A DNA stretch of 32,000 nucleotides from Nostoc sp. PCC 7120 = FACHB-418. Its GTDB lineage: Bacteria; Cyanobacteriota; Cyanobacteriia; Cyanobacteriales; Nostocaceae. Position 1 is the first letter of the stretch, and every line of letters starts with the position of its first letter. Both the position numbers and the translations under genes were made by a program. The notes below the pieces were generated by a model. That model saw only the letters and a program-made list of their open reading frames with translations, made no database searches and had not been told where the DNA came from. The stretch is from NCBI RefSeq assembly GCF_000009705.1, contig NC_003272.1:4710001-4742000 (forward strand), written 5' to 3'. Below are positions 24,458-32,000 of the stretch, piece after piece.

Positions 24458-27400
24458 ATGCGTCTGCTAGATTTACACCCACAACACCTGGAAGAATTAG
24501 TCAAGGGTAGTGGTATAGAATTACACTTGTCACAGCTTAACTTTAGATCCCTCCAAGGCGTAAGCGCCTATGAGCATCTATTAATTTCCGAACACCTACC
24601 CCGTACCAACACGGGAATGGTGAAAAGTGGCTGGTTGCAGCGTTATAGTCATGTTACGGCTGGAGGTTGGTGGTGTTCTGGGTTAGATCCTCTCAACAAT
24701 TGGCAAGGTATGGAATGGGGGTGCTTTAAGCCAAATCAACCGCGCACGAATCAAAATGGCAAGTCTATTAAATATGAACATCCCCCCAGCACAGCAACAC
24801 GGATATTCTGTCTACGAGTGACATTAGAGATATGGCGACAAGTCTCAGGGCGTTACAATTTTCCTATCCCTGGAGATATCACAATTAATTCCCAAGGTGA
24901 AGCGGAAGGCTTTTGGCAATGGGTGATGGAACGCAACATACCAGTCATCATTTGCGAGGGAGCCAAGAAAGCTGCAACATTATTATCTCAGGGATATGTG
25001 GCGATCGCTATTCCGGGGATTACCAGTGGTTATAGAGTTGTTAAAGATAAATTTGGTAAAGTCACTAGTCGCCAGCTAATCCCTGATTTAGCTGCATTTA
25101 CAACCATAAAGCGTACTTTTTATATCTGCTTTGATTATGAAACTCAACAGAGAAAAATAGCAGCTGTTAGTAACGCTATTTCCCAGCTTGGTTGTTTATT
25201 CCAAGCAAAAAAATGTCCTGTAAAAGTTATCGAACTTCCAGGTTTAGAAAAGGGTGTAGATGAGTTAATTGTTGCTAAAGGCGCAAGTGTTTTTGAAAAA
25301 GTTTATCGTCAAAGTGTGGATTTAGAAATTTATCTCGCTCAAATCAAACCCCACAGCGAATTAACGATTCCAGCAGCCATCACAGTAAATCGCCCATATT
25401 TAGAAGAAATCCCCTTCCCTAACTCTGGATTAGTTGGTGTCAAATCAGCGAAAGGTACAGGAAAAACGACATCGTTACAAGCGGTCGTCCAGCAAGCTAA
25501 AAGTATAAATAGACCTGTATTATTAATTACTCATAGAATTCAGTTAGGGCGTTTCCTTTGTGAAAAAATTGGTATTCAATGGGGTCTTATTAATCATGCA
25601 GAAGGTTTAACAAAAAATAGGGATTGGCTAAGAAAAATAGAGCCACAATCTGTAGGATTATGCGTTGACTCTATCTGGAAATTACGCCCAGAAGAGTGGC
25701 AAGGGGCAATTATTATTTTAGACGAAGTTGAGCAGTCTTTGTGGCATCTCCTCAACAGTAATACTTGTAAACATAAACGCGTCAGAATTTTAAAATTATT
25801 TCAACAATTAATTTCTCTAGTTTTATCGACAGGTGGCTTAGTAATTGCCCAAGATGCTGATTTATCGGATGTATCTTTAGAATATTTACAAGGTTTATCA
25901 GGCTGTAAAATCATACCTTGGGTATTAGTAAATCAATGGAAGCCACAACGAGGATGGGAAGTAACCTTTTATGATTCTCCTAACCCTATACCCTTAATTC
26001 AGCAGTTGGAATTAGATTTACTTGCAGGACGTAAATGTTACGTAACTACTGATAGCCGTGCTGGACGTTATAGCTGCGAAACTATTGAACGTTATCTCAA
26101 GGAACGTTTAGAAAAATTGCGATATGAGTTTCCCAAAACCCTAGTAGTGAATAGCCACACAACTAATACTCCCGGTCATGCGGCTGTCGATTTTGTTGCA
26201 GCTATTAACGAAAAAATTACTGAATATAGTAATGTGTTTGTAACTCCTAGTTTGGGAACCGGTATTAGTATTGATGTGCAGCATTTTGACCGCGTATATG
26301 GCATTTTCCAAGGCGTAATTCCTGATTCAGAAGCACGACAAGCATTAGCTAGAGTTAGGGATAATGTGCCAAGAATTGTCTGGTGTGCTAAACGGGGAAT
26401 TGGTTTAATTGGTAGTGGTAGTACAAATTATCGTTTACTATCTGATTGGTATCAGGAAAATCAAAAAGAAAATTTAGCTTTGCTTAGTCCATTACATAAA
26501 ATAGATGTAGACTTACCCTTAGTTTATGACCCTATTCATTTACGAACATGGGCTAAATTGTCGGCAAGGGTTAATTCTTCTATTCGTCTCTATCGCCAAT
26601 CGATGGAAGAGGGATTAACTACAGATGGGCATCAAATTCGCTTGCGGAGTAATGCAGTTCACAATAATATTATCCGAGATTTACGCTTGGCATTCCTCGC
26701 AACTGAGCCAGGTGATTTAAGAGAACGTCAAAGATTAGTTTTAGAAATTGTCAAAGTCCAGAAGGATTGGGTAGAGAAAAGGCAAAAGGGTAAAGAAATT
26801 AAGCGTCAGATTAAGAAAATTAAGCAGCAAAATCAAATAACCGCAGCCACTAATGTAGCCAATGCTAAAGATATTGATTATTTAGAATACGAACATCTTT
26901 CAGGCAAGCATTCTCTAACTGATGAAGAACGCCATCAAATTCAAAAATATAATCTCCACCAAAGATACGGTATCTTAGTCACTCCTTCGCTCAAGTTAAG
27001 AGATGACCAAGGATATTACACTCAACTGTTAATTCATTACTACCTGACCCATGAAAGTGAGTACTTTCAAATCAGAGACCAAAAAGAATGGCATCAACAA
27101 TTATCCTGGGGTAATGGTAAAGTTTTTCTGCCAGATTTAAAAACGTATACTTTAGAAGTTGAGGCAATGAGAGCCTTAGGAATGCCACAATTTATTGACA
27201 TAGAACGAGAATTTACTGAAAATGCCTCTGACTTAATCTGGTTGAAAGATGTGGTCTTTCAACATAGTAGGCATATTAAAAGAGTTTTGGGTCTTGACTT
27301 TATTAGATGCCAAGAAAAAATTACAGCAATCAAGGTTCTTAGCCGGTTACTCAATTTGTTGGGATTGAGATTGAAAAGAGTTAACAATATTTATCAAATT

Positions 27401-27580
27401 GATTTAGAGACATTTAACGATGAGAGGCAAAACATATTTTCAGTTTGGCAACAACGAGATGAGGTCATATTAACTCAAATCAATAATATGAGACGCGAAA
27501 AATATAATTTACTCTCAAACCAAAATCCACAAGCGAAAAATACAAATTCGGTCATCTCTACTATGGTTTCCCTATTTTAG
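24458..27580 (+). CDS. CyRepA1/Slr7037-like plasmid replication protein (DUF3854 Toprim-like domain + P-loop NTPase/helicase-like domain)
   Basis: Toprim-like region VIICEGAKKAATLLSQGYVAIAIPGITSG...FYICFDYE. Walker A GVKSAKGTGKTT and Walker B IIILDEVEQ, followed by a long basic/helical C-terminal region. The architecture matches the primase-helicase Rep of Synechocystis pSYSA (Slr7037 / CyRepA1). Confidence 0.7.
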   Translation: MRLLDLHPQHLEELVKGSGIELHLSQLNFRSLQGVSAYEHLLISEHLPRTNTGMVKSGWLQRYSHVTAGGWWCSGLDPLNNWQGMEWGCFKPNQPRTNQNGKSIKYEHPPSTATRIFCLRVTLEIWRQVSGRYNFPIPGDITINSQGEAEGFWQWVMERNIPVIICEGAKKAATLLSQGYVAIAIPGITSGYRVVKDKFGKVTSRQLIPDLAAFTTIKRTFYICFDYETQQRKIAAVSNAISQLGCLFQAKKCPVKVIELPGLEKGVDELIVAKGASVFEKVYRQSVDLEIYLAQIKPHSELTIPAAITVNRPYLEEIPFPNSGLVGVKSAKGTGKTTSLQAVVQQAKSINRPVLLITHRIQLGRFLCEKIGIQWGLINHAEGLTKNRDWLRKIEPQSVGLCVDSIWKLRPEEWQGAIIILDEVEQSLWHLLNSNTCKHKRVRILKLFQQLISLVLSTGGLVIAQDADLSDVSLEYLQGLSGCKIIPWVLVNQWKPQRGWEVTFYDSPNPIPLIQQLELDLLAGRKCYVTTDSRAGRYSCETIERYLKERLEKLRYEFPKTLVVNSHTTNTPGHAAVDFVAAINEKITEYSNVFVTPSLGTGISIDVQHFDRVYGIFQGVIPDSEARQALARVRDNVPRIVWCAKRGIGLIGSGSTNYRLLSDWYQENQKENLALLSPLHKIDVDLPLVYDPIHLRTWAKLSARVNSSIRLYRQSMEEGLTTDGHQIRLRSNAVHNNIIRDLRLAFLATEPGDLRERQRLVLEIVKVQKDWVEKRQKGKEIKRQIKKIKQQNQITAATNVANAKDIDYLEYEHLSGKHSLTDEERHQIQKYNLHQRYGILVTPSLKLRDDQGYYTQLLIHYYLTHESEYFQIRDQKEWHQQLSWGNGKVFLPDLKTYTLEVEAMRALGMPQFIDIEREFTENASDLIWLKDVVFQHSRHIKRVLGLDFIRCQEKITAIKVLSRLLNLLGLRLKRVNNIYQIDLETFNDERQNIFSVWQQRDEVILTQINNMRREKYNLLSNQNPQAKNTNSVISTMVSLF

Positions 27581-27830
27581 AGACCATTTATAAAATAAAC
27601 CTTTAGACGACGCAGCATAATACAACTCACAACAGCATCACTTATTTCAGAGAGATGCTCATAATCCTTGCTGAGAAAACGGTCAAAGCTAGCAGGTAAT
27701 GTCTCAGAGCGCGATCGCTTTAGCCAAAAACACTCCGCGACAAGCAGACTAGCGAGATAATGGAGTCAATGGGTAAATTTGTATCGCCTGGTAAAGGCTT
27801 CAAGCGTATGCTTTGCAACACAGAGAATTT
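27577..27830 (-). pseudogene. decayed C-terminal remnant of an IS5-family DDE transposase
   Basis: Minus-strand translation gives ...RRYKFTH*LHYLASLLVAECFWLKRSRSETLPASFDRFLSKDYEHLSEISDAVVSCIMLRRLKVYFINGL*. The LSKDYE.L.E.S.A......ML+RL block is the conserved IS5-group transposase C-terminus. There is an in-frame stop and an indel relative to the consensus ERTFAWLNRFRRLSKDYE. Weaker transposase-like peptides continue to ~28020. Confidence 0.5.
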
Positions 27831-28080: not shown

Positions 28081-28236
28081 ATGTATGGCATCGATCCCGT
28101 GCTTATACGGTGGTTTTTATTTGTATTAGTAATTATTTTATTTGTGATCACAGTTTTTTACTGTCTGGTTGCTTCTTCAGGGTTTTTCGGTTCAGGTGCA
28201 ACATCTACCTTTCATAAAGTAAAATATGCTGTTTGA
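28081..28236 (+). CDS. 51-aa single-pass membrane protein (not in the supplied ORF track), overlapping the downstream 442-aa ORF
   Basis: My own translation gives MYGIDPVLIRWFLFVLVIILFVITVFYCLVASSGFFGSGATSTFHKVKYAV*. It has one strong TM helix. Its TGA stop (28234-28236) lies 11 nt inside the next ORF, whose ATG is at 28226 (sequence tATGCTGTTTGA), an arrangement typical of translational coupling. Confidence 0.45.
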   Translation: MYGIDPVLIRWFLFVLVIILFVITVFYCLVASSGFFGSGATSTFHKVKYAV

Positions 28237-29554
28237 ATTTATCTCTACTATTAAAGCGGGCATTGACTCTGGTCAATACTTGGAAATATTGAGTAATGGG
28301 ATACCCATTGGTATAGTACGTGATACTACAAGTGGAAGTTTTCTTGCTTATGCGGTTGGTGCTATAGCTAGTAATCATCCTTTACTACCACTAACTGTAC
28401 CTATTCAGTTCCTAATCCCCGGAGTAAATATGGTACAGGATTACATAGCTTTTCCACAAAGTTATCAGCAAAGTAGTTCTCTACAAACTGTATTAAAATC
28501 ACTTCAAACAAATATAAGCGTTCTGCAAGCAACTATAGCCTTGATTGAATTAGGTAAAATACCGAGTGTCGCATTAGAAGCAGTCAACTTACGCCAGACA
28601 CTCAAGCTTAAAAAAGAAGTTGAAGAAATGCAACTTGAACTTAAAAACGGCTTTATTGATTTGCAAAAAGCTCTCAAAGCTCAAGGAGCAGAAGTTAGAC
28701 AAATAGTCAAAGAAGTAGTCCATGATATTAATTTTGAACAACATTGTACAGTTTTAGGACGTGCCTATAGCCTGTTTATGCAGGCGTGTAATCGGTTACA
28801 ATCAGCGATGGAATCACCAGATATCAGTCAAAGAAAGTCCGAAATTGATAGTGCAAGAGAAATGTTCCTTGAGGTTTTAGCCGATTACATTAATCCTCAA
28901 ATATTGGAAAAAGTCTCCGCGCCGGGACAACTTCGCAGATTTGAATGTGCTTGGGCAATTGAACAAGCAATTGTTATCACATACCAAGTACAGAATCAGG
29001 TGGCATTTGTTAGCGATCGCCTCTGCCATCTCCGCGATAAAATTAAAGAACACATCTGTACAGTGATTAACAATTGTGAAACCTACGATGAGCTGAATTT
29101 TCTGTTTCCCGAAATAAGTCGCGTTTGTAAACATGATTTACCTATTTTGGAAGTATGGCAAGCACGAGTTGATTGGCTCAGGTCACTTTCGCCAGTGGAG
29201 ATAAAACTTTTAGCAAAAAACAATTGCAACGATTCTGAACTTGCAGATACTTTAGTTACTAATCAAACTAAAATTGTGTTATCAGTACCACCCGAACAAT
29301 TAGTATATGAAGATTTAGCAGAAAAATCCCATTTTTACTCTCTGCTTGATCAGATGATATTTATGTTTAAGCCTGTTTTACGTCAGGAGTACGAAGTTTA
29401 TATCAATCAACAAGCTCAAGCGGCGGGTCATAAGATATTAATTCCCAAAAACCTACAACAAGTCTCTGATATGACTGTTGCAAATCTTTATTACTATTTT
29501 AAGGTAAGAGATGAATCTAATATAGAAGAAACTCTAGAGGCAATAACAGCATAA
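28226..29554 (+). CDS. hypothetical 442-aa protein, no recognisable domain
   Basis: Long uninterrupted ORF in an AT-rich region. The N-terminal ~110 aa are moderately hydrophobic (G/A/P/I-rich). The rest is predicted helical, with charged heptad-like stretches (KLKKEVEEMQLELKNGFIDLQKALKAQGAEVRQIVKEV). No catalytic motif recognised. Confidence 0.65.
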   Translation: MLFEFISTIKAGIDSGQYLEILSNGIPIGIVRDTTSGSFLAYAVGAIASNHPLLPLTVPIQFLIPGVNMVQDYIAFPQSYQQSSSLQTVLKSLQTNISVLQATIALIELGKIPSVALEAVNLRQTLKLKKEVEEMQLELKNGFIDLQKALKAQGAEVRQIVKEVVHDINFEQHCTVLGRAYSLFMQACNRLQSAMESPDISQRKSEIDSAREMFLEVLADYINPQILEKVSAPGQLRRFECAWAIEQAIVITYQVQNQVAFVSDRLCHLRDKIKEHICTVINNCETYDELNFLFPEISRVCKHDLPILEVWQARVDWLRSLSPVEIKLLAKNNCNDSELADTLVTNQTKIVLSVPPEQLVYEDLAEKSHFYSLLDQMIFMFKPVLRQEYEVYINQQAQAAGHKILIPKNLQQVSDMTVANLYYYFKVRDESNIEETLEAITA

Positions 29555-29739
29555 TCTCTCTAAAAAATTTAGGGCTTGTTGGCAAGTAAATTAATCAAGC
29601 CGTTAGTATAAGTACAAATTAGACGTACAACATTGCTGATTTTTTGGCGAAATTAATTTCGTCATAACTTATGGCGAATTTCAAGTTAGTGATATACAAA
29701 AATACTCAACTTACTTGACGCAAGCGTAATTAAGCACTG

Positions 29740-31980
29740 TCAATTATGCGCTGCTTTAATAACTACTTTATTAATTTCCTCTGAATACCAAAGTGCAATA
29801 TCTTTGCTAATTCTACTGTTTAGTTTTTCAAGTTCTTCACACTTATCTAAAATCAAAGATTTAGTTGCATAATGTTGCTCTAGCATTGCTTGATTAGATT
29901 TTTCTTGCTGCTCTAAAAGTTTTTCATACATATATATAGCTCCTTCAATAACTCGACTTACTGATTCAACCTTAGTATCAAAAAATATCTCGATATTTTC
30001 CTGGATTTTTTCGTAAACTTTATCAAAGGATTCGTCAAACTTTTCCAACCCAATTTCTAAGACAGACAATTTAATTTCGCTATGGAATTTATCGCTGTCC
30101 ATCATCATAGATGCAAAAGAATTACCTATTACAGCACTAACATTAGCTAGTGCTGTCGGGATAAAGCCAATTCTTGTAAACTCCATTAATTCCCCCTTTA
30201 ATGGAGTACTAAAATCAATATTATCTAATTCAATTAATTGGTCAGAAATCTCATTAATAGAAAGCTTTAACTTTTCGCTGAATTTAGTATTATCTCTCAT
30301 GTCTAATAAATTAAATTCTGCTTGAATTGCATCTAACTCATACTTGATATTTCGATTTAAATTTTGTAAATTTTCTTCTAATATTATATTTTTAAGTTGA
30401 CTATTAACCCAGTCATCAATTTCATCAGATAAATCGCTAACAAAACACTGAATATAATCACGAACTAACTTGTCTTGTTTCCAAAAGAGCTTATATTCGG
30501 AATTCCAACGTTCACTTTTCAATAACATACGCTCTTCTAAACCTTCATACCACTCACCCCATGAAACATTTGCTTTTTCAAGGGATTTTTCTATTAGTTG
30601 AATGGTCAATAAGCATATTTTTACATCACGTCCACTAAACTCTCCAATTTGCTCTAAAATTTTACGTTTTCCTTCCTCAGCAATTTTTATTTTAGATTCT
30701 AACTCATCTTTAAATTCTCTCAAATTATTAATAATTCTTTGAATTATTTTATTAAGTTGATCAGGTAATGGCTGTAGTTTTAGCCTTCCACGTTCGAGGA
30801 TCAAAAATCTTTCAATTGATTTAATAAAAGTATCAAAGCTTTTTTTATATTCGTCTTCATAGCCATACATAACCGATCTCAAGGCTGCTTGGGCTGAAAT
30901 AAAGTGAACACGATTTTTTCCGGTAATTATTGGTTTTTCACCTTCAACAAAGTTGTAAATTCTCTTTTTTATCTGATCACGACTTTTTTCTGTATTCACT
31001 AAATCCATAAAATTGACAACGATAAATAAGTTATTTGCTGGCTCTTGATCTTTACCACCATTGAGTTTAAGCCTCAATTCATTTAATGATTGACGTTCGC
31101 CTTGCGTCAGTGAGCGTGAAGCATTAGTAACAAAAATTGCAGCATCTATATCTTGAAGTAAGTTTTGAGTAATAGCTGTGAGTTCTGGATTCTCATTTAA
31201 TCCTGGTGAATCGATGATTTCTACACCACTATTGCATAATGCCAGATTAGAGTGTTCAACTATGATTTCTTTAATATCAGATTGTTTGAGTTCTTTATTT
31301 AAAGAGTTAAGAGCAATATCTTCAGAAATACTTACTTTTTGTCGATACTCATCAAATGGTATTTCTTTTTCGCTTCCATCTTTATAGCGGTAAATTACAC
31401 GTTTTTGCGTTCCATACTTCAAGACTACTATATTCCCATTACAGGGAATCTCTCGCATTGGTTGAATTTCTTCGCCTAGTAAAGCATTTAGTAAAGTTGA
31501 TTTTCCTTGACTAAACTCACCAATAACAGCCAATCGAAACCGATGTAATTGGAACTTTTTAGATAACCCATTCACTTCGTCAATTAAATCTTTAGCTAGA
31601 AATCCAAGTTCATGACAAGTTTGAACTATTTGAGAAATCTGATTGCAATAATTACCTAACTGTTGGTTAAACTCTTGAAATTTTTTCAACCCTTCATAGT
31701 ATATAGAAACACGCGGCTGATTTGTGTTAGTCTTAGAGTTGGAAATCAGAGTCTTCCAATTATTGGAATGTGGTTTAATCTCTACATTTTTAAATCCTTG
31801 ATTACGTGGTGTATCTAGTAAAATTTCCACCTCATTCAAAACTGCTATATCTAAACTCTCTTGGGGTCTAAATGCAGATGCCAGAACTGCCAAATATTCT
31901 GTTTTAACGCCCAAATAATGAGCCAAAATCTCTAAATACCTTTGTTCACGTAAACCCAATTTATTATCACTTGTAGACAT
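29740..31980 (-). CDS. bacterial dynamin-like GTPase (BDLP family) with ~150-aa N-terminal extension
   Basis: G1/P-loop GEFSQGKSTLLNALLG, G3 IIDSPGLNE, a G4-like VVNFMDL, then ~400 aa of helical stalk/paddle-type sequence. The ATG is 20 nt from the window end. Confidence 0.85.
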   Translation of the reverse strand: MSTSDNKLGLREQRYLEILAHYLGVKTEYLAVLASAFRPQESLDIAVLNEVEILLDTPRNQGFKNVEIKPHSNNWKTLISNSKTNTNQPRVSIYYEGLKKFQEFNQQLGNYCNQISQIVQTCHELGFLAKDLIDEVNGLSKKFQLHRFRLAVIGEFSQGKSTLLNALLGEEIQPMREIPCNGNIVVLKYGTQKRVIYRYKDGSEKEIPFDEYRQKVSISEDIALNSLNKELKQSDIKEIIVEHSNLALCNSGVEIIDSPGLNENPELTAITQNLLQDIDAAIFVTNASRSLTQGERQSLNELRLKLNGGKDQEPANNLFIVVNFMDLVNTEKSRDQIKKRIYNFVEGEKPIITGKNRVHFISAQAALRSVMYGYEDEYKKSFDTFIKSIERFLILERGRLKLQPLPDQLNKIIQRIINNLREFKDELESKIKIAEEGKRKILEQIGEFSGRDVKICLLTIQLIEKSLEKANVSWGEWYEGLEERMLLKSERWNSEYKLFWKQDKLVRDYIQCFVSDLSDEIDDWVNSQLKNIILEENLQNLNRNIKYELDAIQAEFNLLDMRDNTKFSEKLKLSINEISDQLIELDNIDFSTPLKGELMEFTRIGFIPTALANVSAVIGNSFASMMMDSDKFHSEIKLSVLEIGLEKFDESFDKVYEKIQENIEIFFDTKVESVSRVIEGAIYMYEKLLEQQEKSNQAMLEQHYATKSLILDKCEELEKLNSRISKDIALWYSEEINKVVIKAAHN

Positions 31981-32000
31981 TTCATAACCAAGCCCAATTA

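Follow-up and report, generated by a model that had tools for sequence, protein, structure and literature searches.

A TerB-fused clade of cyanobacterial dynamin-like GTPases and its linked partner family: a candidate two-component membrane module in Nostoc sp. PCC 7120

To our knowledge, bacterial dynamin-like proteins (BDLPs) are abundant in cyanobacteria, with roles in vivo that are essentially unknown. Some eukaryotic dynamins act with adaptors, as Drp1 does with Mff, Fis1 or MiD, and plastids hold a dynamin-like protein (DLP) of their own, FZL; TerB domains, which also concern us here, have elsewhere been linked to the sensing of stress close to membranes. Structures are available for the BDLP of Nostoc punctiforme (NosDLP, Npun_R6513; PDB 2j68, 2j69, 2w6d). 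In the cyanobacterial BDLP clades that have been delineated, the neighbouring gene encodes a KGK protein, an HSR1 GTPase, a DnaK-type chaperone or a second DLP (Jilly et al., 2018). TerB domains also form part of two defence systems, Shango and Bunzi, and have been proposed to serve in membrane surveillance (bioRxiv 10.1101/2022.05.11.491447). Our literature search returned no dedicated non-GTPase partner for a BDLP and no fusion of TerB to a dynamin, a defence-system survey alone mentioning both, and then separately. Here we consider alr3926 and all3927, two adjacent genes at the end of a 32,000-nucleotide stretch of the chromosome of Nostoc sp. PCC 7120 (NC_003272.1, positions 4,710,001 to 4,742,000; 'the window', in which all positions are given unless stated otherwise). 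An initial annotation, made from the letters of the window, had proposed a module of three genes: a 51-residue single-transmembrane peptide, a 442-residue orphan (the product of alr3926) and a convergent 746-residue dynamin-like GTPase (that of all3927). Comparison across genomes reduces this to two genes, the peptide being confined to one sub-clade, and brings out what we believe to be new: a distinct clade of TerB-fused DLPs and an obligately linked, uncharacterised partner family. On balance, and with modest confidence, we regard alr3926 and all3927 as a conserved, self-contained two-component module for membrane remodelling or maintenance.

The argument begins with the adjacency of the two genes. 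Eighty-five distinct loci were tallied (L numbers below are ours), four of which could not be assessed because less than 200 nt lay upstream, and in each of the other 81 the gene for the partner has as its immediate neighbour a gene derived from a DLP of one clade. The commonest arrangement is a full-length DLP gene divergent from its partner across a spacer with a median of 142 bp (59 loci). Four more divergent loci are truncated by the end of a contig, six have a DLP that lacks its N-terminal domain, and in seven the DLP has lost its GTPase domain by deletion in frame, each time independently. The two genes are in tandem on the same strand in four loci (L006, L007, L086 and L087) and convergent in one, the window; a second convergent case, in Nostoc sp. 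MS1 (L104), stands outside the tally. The linkage is kept, in other words, in three gene orders: divergent, tandem and convergent. Judged from these sequences, the divergent head-to-head order with its spacer of about 142 bp is ancestral and the tail-to-tail order of the window a derived, lineage-specific rearrangement, whose spacer showed no homology to those of the tandem loci. In the one case at the taxonomic edge that was approached from the DLP instead (L105), the partner again lay divergently upstream. No third neighbour is conserved, the next best occurring in at most 23 loci and the 264 flanking genes falling into 157 families. Pairwise distances among partners co-vary with those among DLPs (r=0.68, 66 pairs), and both proteins place the window's sub-clade in one lineage. 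Some genomes carry paralogous pairs (L006/L014, L008/L063). A GUN4 domain is found at the C-terminus of the partner in L012, L037, L054 and L061, and at the C-terminus of the DLP in L073 (6600–9758, minus strand; E=9e-37). The initial annotation had flagged a functional link between the GTPase and the 442-residue protein as inference only, and had allowed that relatives of the latter might never be found near BDLP genes. The opposite was seen, and the adjacency in 81 of 81 loci, the co-divergence and the GUN4 fusions now strongly support a functional link, from genomic evidence, and make a physical interaction a reasonable prediction.

The pair and its elements lie in the window as follows.

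28081–28236, plus strand: open reading frame (ORF) of 51 aa with one transmembrane (TM) segment, from the ORF call, in the 5′ leader of alr3926 (the micro-TM ORF)
28226–29554, plus strand: alr3926, 442 aa, an ORF identical to BAB75625.1
28523–28591, plus strand: hairpin of alr3926, residues 100–122, placed by family conservation and predicted secondary structure
28649–28666, plus strand: motif GFIDL[KQ] of alr3926, a signature common to a distant clade of relatives
28934–28966, plus strand: motif RRxECxWAIEQ of alr3926, a signature common to the same distant clade
29555–29739, no strand: 185-bp spacer between the convergent genes alr3926 and all3927
29740–32000, minus strand: all3927 (DLP; BAB75626.1), with its stop codon at 29740 and cut by the end of the window
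30097–30210, minus strand: paddle or membrane-hairpin region of all3927, residues 708–745 of the full-length protein
31003–31020, minus strand: G4-like motif NFMD of all3927
31069–31533, minus strand: Dynamin_N GTPase domain of all3927 (PF00350)
31192–31212, minus strand: G3 motif DSPG of all3927
31495–31521, minus strand: G1 motif GEFSQGKST of all3927
31897–32000, minus strand: C-terminal end of the TerB-like domain of all3927, the remainder lying outside the window

The assignment of all3927 to the dynamin family stands (Dynamin_N, PF00350, E=1e-30), and its length is revised: the 746 residues reported at first are those readable from an in-window ATG at 31980, the gene having run off the window, and the full-length protein has 863. 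Its orthologues align with it from residue 1, and the motifs GEFSQGKST, DSPG and NFMD are invariant in 23 of them. Residues 211–841 of the family profile align with residues 10–681 of NosDLP (2j68; E=2.2e-44), a span that takes in GTPase, neck, trunk and paddle, and the next-best relatives of known structure are the mitofusins, Campylobacter DLP1/2 and IniA. In canonical orthologues the paddle is a glycine-rich, hydrophobic double segment, GIGGALAAGLLAFTGLGFIAIIVASVAATIAG (KD15 2.4–2.8); that of all3927 is attenuated but present (KD15 1.8). By homology, all3927 is a bona fide BDLP of the mitofusin/NosDLP class, for which GTP-dependent membrane remodelling is predicted. Ahead of the BDLP core this clade has an additional N-terminal region of some 210 residues that contains TerB. 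Orthologues match TerB (PF05099) significantly (L005, 1.4e-12; L004, 5.9e-8; L073, 7.3e-6), as do most of 120 DLP homologues, a set confined to orthologues, without the sequences past the family boundary. In all3927 itself the domain has diverged and the match (residues 37–145, E=0.019) falls below the cut-off, so that we take its N-terminus to be homologous to TerB because the alignment to orthologues is continuous from residue 1.

The partner protein proved to be helical and without an assignable family, as the initial annotation had it, and is no orphan. An exhaustive profile search of 1.84 billion proteins gave 236 representatives at 50% identity, and homologues of alr3926 form at least 233 clusters at 90% identity, with relatives in 277 species-level genomes. 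These are mostly Nostocales, with some Coleofasciculaceae, Microcoleus, Chroococcidiopsidales and Pleurocapsales, and the module is largely one of cyanobacteria that are filamentous or otherwise complex in morphology. In Pfam, NCBIfam and PADLOC no model was matched above threshold by any of 29 diverse members, and a profile search of PDB sequences returned no relative (best E=0.54). The AlphaFold2 model of alr3926 (pLDDT 72.8, pTM 0.78) is mostly helical, with a predicted layout of small N-terminal beta domain (residues 1–50), disordered linker, hydrophobic helical hairpin and long helical bundle, and Foldseek found no significant match to its fold (best E=0.34 in PDB and 0.09 in BFVD). The housekeeping assignment that the initial annotation had left open thus did not emerge from Pfam, NCBIfam, PADLOC or Foldseek searches. 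We discarded a fold like domain I of the Cry toxins, for which there were a few weak Foldseek matches that amount to no evidence (probability at most 0.6, TM-score about 0.27); descent from a DLP stalk that had lost its GTPase, the hhalign probability for partner against DLP being 0.4%; and membership of a TelA-like or other Ter family, there being no consistent weak Pfam match across the 29 members. The protein has neither GTPase domain nor P-loop. Its best conserved segment throughout the family is the hairpin, predicted as helix-turn-helix, which in canonical members is small-residue-rich (LQATTALIGVGTVAGVALSAVNL, KD19 1.7–2.0) and in the window is replaced by a charged variant, LQATIALIELGKIPSVALEAVNL; C241 and D304 are invariant in all relatives. 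In four loci (L033, L047, L070 and L072) the C-terminus of the partner carries a fused ACP domain whose phosphopantetheine-attachment motif, DSLD, is intact; in L066 an insertion of some 2.4 kb apparently separates the ACP part from the partner.

The core of the partner recurs in a distant clade, recognisable by the motifs GF[IL]DLK and LRRLECxWA and by the hairpin, and is fused there to WD40, TPR or MORN arrays. It directly adjoins a stand-alone TerB gene in L088 (E=2e-22) and in L090, and a TerD gene in L091 (E=1e-19), and hence a link to Ter proteins recurs outside the dynamin context. Other neighbours in this clade are AbiEii, SocA/Panacea, HNH and helicase genes. On contig BeggDRAFT_10015 (L099 and L103) there are fragments resembling the core, in ORFs of 84–166 aa, one of them beside an HNH endonuclease gene. 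The name of the contig suggests Beggiatoa, and the fragments could represent a non-cyanobacterial occurrence or horizontal transfer.

The sub-clade of the window differs from the rest of the family in its membrane elements. The charged hairpin, with three or four charged residues, occurs in the six genomes of the sub-clade, and the paddle of the DLP is less hydrophobic in both members in which it was examined (all3927 and L006). The presence of the micro-TM ORF coincides exactly with the charged-hairpin variant. As first described, this ORF encodes a single, very hydrophobic helix (KD19 3.2) and its stop overlaps the ATG of alr3926 at 28226 by 11 nt. It is absent from 76 of the 82 loci scored, namely the canonical ones, whose spacers leave too little room and hold no hydrophobic ORF. 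The leader of about 150 nt in which it lies is conserved in the rearranged sub-clade; within it, starts and C-terminal tails of the ORF vary and some indels shift the frame, whilst the TM core recurs. An ORF of Nostoc sp. MS1 matches in frame over 40 residues (65% identity, E=9e-15). Whether the ORF is a gene is uncertain, and it stands outside the conserved module. At 28097–28120 (plus strand), inside both leader and ORF, a short hairpin is followed by a run of T, CCGTGCTTATACGG TGGTTTTTAT; this T-rich stretch is nearly invariant in nucleotides across the sub-clade and could be attenuator-like, in a terminator scan that was overall at chance level.

The surroundings of the pair can be described briefly. 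The locus is chromosomal (a contig of 6,413,771 bp), and searches of 72,556 plasmids by megablast and tblastn gave no match to the region or to alr3926. Upstream, at 24458–27580 on the plus strand, is alr3925 (Rep), a CyRepA1/DUF3854 plasmid-type replication protein of 1040 aa (NCBIfam, E=1e-115), in agreement with the initial annotation. It is given 987 aa in the original annotation of PCC 7120, and is a full-length plasmid-type Rep on a chromosome, with close copies in Trichormus variabilis and other Nostocaceae. Between Rep and the pair, about 96 bp at 27581–27676 are 68–70% identical to DNA that overlaps IS5-family transposase genes. The insertion sequence remnant that had been reported here comes down to this faint similarity, the ORFs around it having no Pfam match. 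Neighbours encoding PG_binding and rhomboid proteins are stable and common to the window locus and its relatives. At L001 (15695–16108, minus strand), outside the window and about 1.6 kb past the start of the DLP gene, an ORF of 137 aa has a weak match to SLATT_6 (E=0.0034, below threshold). SLATT_6 is a 2TM effector domain of conflict systems. In Nostoc sp. NIES-3756 (L087, 9949–14030, plus strand) the partner gene is followed directly by three genes, for a VWA protein, a PP2C phosphatase and a Ser/Thr kinase, that recall the TerY-P triad; we do not count this trio as a conserved neighbour, for it was seen only there and, some 8 kb away, in L073. No structured RNA was found in the window with Rfam, and the spacer at 29555–29739 holds no consensus terminator, nor one above chance (fold z-score −2.6). 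The only study in which our literature search found alr3926 or all3927 named is a HetR ChIP-seq analysis, where a peak at chromosome positions 4740704–4741151 is assigned to the junction of the two genes and expression of all3927 is reported to be reduced 2.9-fold by a hetR mutation at 6 h of nitrogen step-down (PMC4192349). No HetR-type palindrome (GGGN5CCC) is present in the convergent spacer.

If the two genes do form a membrane-remodelling module, alr3926 would be the dedicated non-GTPase partner, associated with the membrane through its hairpin, with TerB, the paddle or both as its point of contact with the DLP. It might in this way target or gate GTP-driven remodelling at the thylakoid or plasma membrane, whether by tethering, fusion or repair. 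The ACP and GUN4 appendages hint at the handling of lipids or tetrapyrroles and, if so, at upkeep of the thylakoid membrane. Within the sub-clade of PCC 7120 the order changed from head-to-head through tandem to tail-to-tail, both membrane elements became less hydrophobic, and a translationally coupled micro-TM ORF arose ahead of the partner gene; this ORF may have taken over the anchoring. We would also put forward a stronger and, as it stands, unlikely version of the scheme, in which the hairpin of the partner and the glycine-rich paddle of the DLP form a heteromeric intramembrane assembly, a thylakoid fusion and repair machine akin to mitofusin or FZL; TerB would sense membrane or metal stress, GUN4 and ACP would couple in the supply of chlorophyll precursors or acyl groups, and in PCC 7120 the anchor would have moved to the micro-TM peptide. 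Such an assembly would provide the first defined partner, and with it a functional handle, for any cyanobacterial DLP.

Several observations weigh against a two-component membrane module. The GTPase domain has been deleted in frame on seven independent occasions, with different breakpoints (L012, L036, L049, L060, L061, L067 and L069), and the partner is intact in all seven. Because these lineages keep the partner having lost the GTPase domain, the partner may have a role that does not depend on the DLP, or the module may decay easily and have been eroded repeatedly. Six canonical loci carry a DLP without TerB, and TerB cannot therefore be the sole interface. No full TM helix is predicted in alr3926, whose hairpin is borderline in hydrophobicity, and because no relative with a known function could be detected, we can only infer that the protein acts as adaptor, anchor or regulator. 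Any linked genes that are inherited vertically would be expected to show co-varying distances, and the adjacency to Ter genes in the distant clade is limited to three of about nine loci. Finally, the changes in hairpin, paddle and micro-ORF constitute a single evolutionary event, which leaves compensatory anchoring by the 51-aa ORF conjectural.

Repeated loss of the GTPase domain would also fit an anti-phage or abortive-infection system, a possible but distinctly less probable account of the pair, in which TerB would sense perturbation of the envelope and the DLP would seal or remodel the membrane as DynA does, or the hairpin of the partner would disrupt it. The use of TerB by Shango and Bunzi speaks for such a role, as does the generic homology of the DLP to the PADLOC models for LeoA and LeoBC (E=1.7e-16 and 5.5e-9, the LeoA match being confined to the P-loop region). 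The WD40, TPR and MORN fusions of the distant relatives and their AbiEii, SocA/Panacea, HNH and helicase neighbours are in keeping with it, and so are the highly variable genomic contexts of the pair, its persistently low GC and HIP1 density, the paralogous pairs and the triad beside the pair in L087. The initial annotation had taken mobile context, membrane targeting and an NTPase together as the usual signature of an accessory stress or defence module. The defence-island setting did not materialise: in a PADLOC scan of 141 flank families no PADLOC family matched more than three, and hence there is no enrichment. Nor does the partner match a PADLOC model, or the region anything in the plasmid collection, and the ACP and GUN4 fusions suggest metabolism or membranes over immunity. 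The pair is conserved in at least 277 species genomes with partner and DLP diverging together, for which a stably inherited cellular function is a better fit than a rapidly exchanged defence gene.

The ancestral layout invites a further explanation, which we consider quite unlikely, namely that alr3926 is a transcriptional or allosteric regulator of the DLP and the divergent order reflects shared promoter control. A head-to-head arrangement across about 142 bp is typical of regulator–target pairs, alr3926 lacks a strong predicted TM helix, and the HetR peak and HetR-dependent expression of all3927 indicate that the locus is regulated. However, searches of the 29 diverse members turned up no DNA-binding or known signalling domain, the best conserved element is a hydrophobic, small-residue hairpin, fusions to GUN4, ACP, WD40, TPR and MORN are atypical of transcription factors, and the linkage has outlived the loss of the shared promoter region by rearrangement. 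Least probable of all, and largely refuted by the comparative data, is a mobile accessory island in which micro-TM ORF, orphan and DLP were acquired together with the plasmid Rep. It was suggested by the CyRepA1 gene directly upstream, the faint IS5-like fragment, the overlap of the micro-TM ORF with the start of the partner (in frame in Nostoc sp. MS1 as well) and the base composition. The pair region does have the lowest GC in the window (0.30–0.37) and is poor in HIP1 (GCGATCGC), as had been stated: of 27 sites in the window, against 0.24 expected by chance and as expected of a cyanobacterial signature, one lies within 28081–32000 and three in the last 8 kb. Both features, however, are family-wide. 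In 52 of 52 loci the GC content of the DLP gene is below that of its flanks (mean −5.8 points), and HIP1 sites are sparser in the pair (0.47/kb) than in the flanks (0.83/kb). We have therefore rejected low GC and scarce HIP1 as signs of horizontal transfer; composition is no evidence of recent acquisition here. Rep adjoins the pair in the PCC 7120 group only, being absent at Nostoc sp. MS1, the nearest convergent relative; the micro-TM ORF is missing from most loci, alr3926 is no orphan, and the locus is chromosomal, with stable PG_binding and rhomboid neighbours and no plasmid match. We regard the mobile context earlier read as a signature as incidental.

A two-component membrane module, which we prefer to these alternatives, has the merit of offering two genes with which to study the targeting or gating of a prokaryotic dynamin, and to tell upkeep of the thylakoid or plasma membrane from phage defence. 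Both families are present in the tractable models Nostoc sp. PCC 7120 and N. punctiforme, and nature supplies variants for comparison in the DLPs that lack TerB or the GTPase domain, the fusions to GUN4 or ACP and the sub-clade with the micro-TM ORF.

In conclusion, all3927 resembles NosDLP over the whole length of that protein, and differs from it in belonging to another clade and in its additional N-terminal region of about 210 residues with TerB. Tandem A/B BDLPs pair with a second DLP, whereas all3927 pairs with a helical protein that is not a GTPase. Neither its clade nor the partner appears in the classification of Jilly et al. (2018), whose supplement lacks the orthologues: for Nostoc PCC 7524, Nos7524_0028, Nos7524_0596 and Nos7524_3124 are included but Nos7524_4510 is not. 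None of the neighbours of their clades is conserved beside the all3927 clade, whose sole conserved neighbour is the alr3926 family. With Eleos (LeoA/LeoBC) and DynA the pair has a BDLP-type GTPase in common, and protection of membranes is conceivable for it too. Those systems, however, consist of two DLP modules, as paired genes or as a fused two-headed protein, and at least two DLP-type genes per operon define Eleos, whereas each of our loci has one DLP with an unrelated partner; the initial view that the partner set does not resemble DynA or LeoA/LeoBC is borne out. Ter systems, Shango and Bunzi share the TerB domain with orthologues of all3927, and the TerC, TerD, TerZ, TerA and TerE of the Ter operon are not conserved beside the cyanobacterial pair. 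A functional parallel may be drawn with Drp1 and FZL: there is no kinship in sequence or fold, and alr3926 is a putative adaptor, but the concept would be the same, that of a dynamin GTPase sited by a dedicated, membrane-associated partner that is not itself a GTPase.

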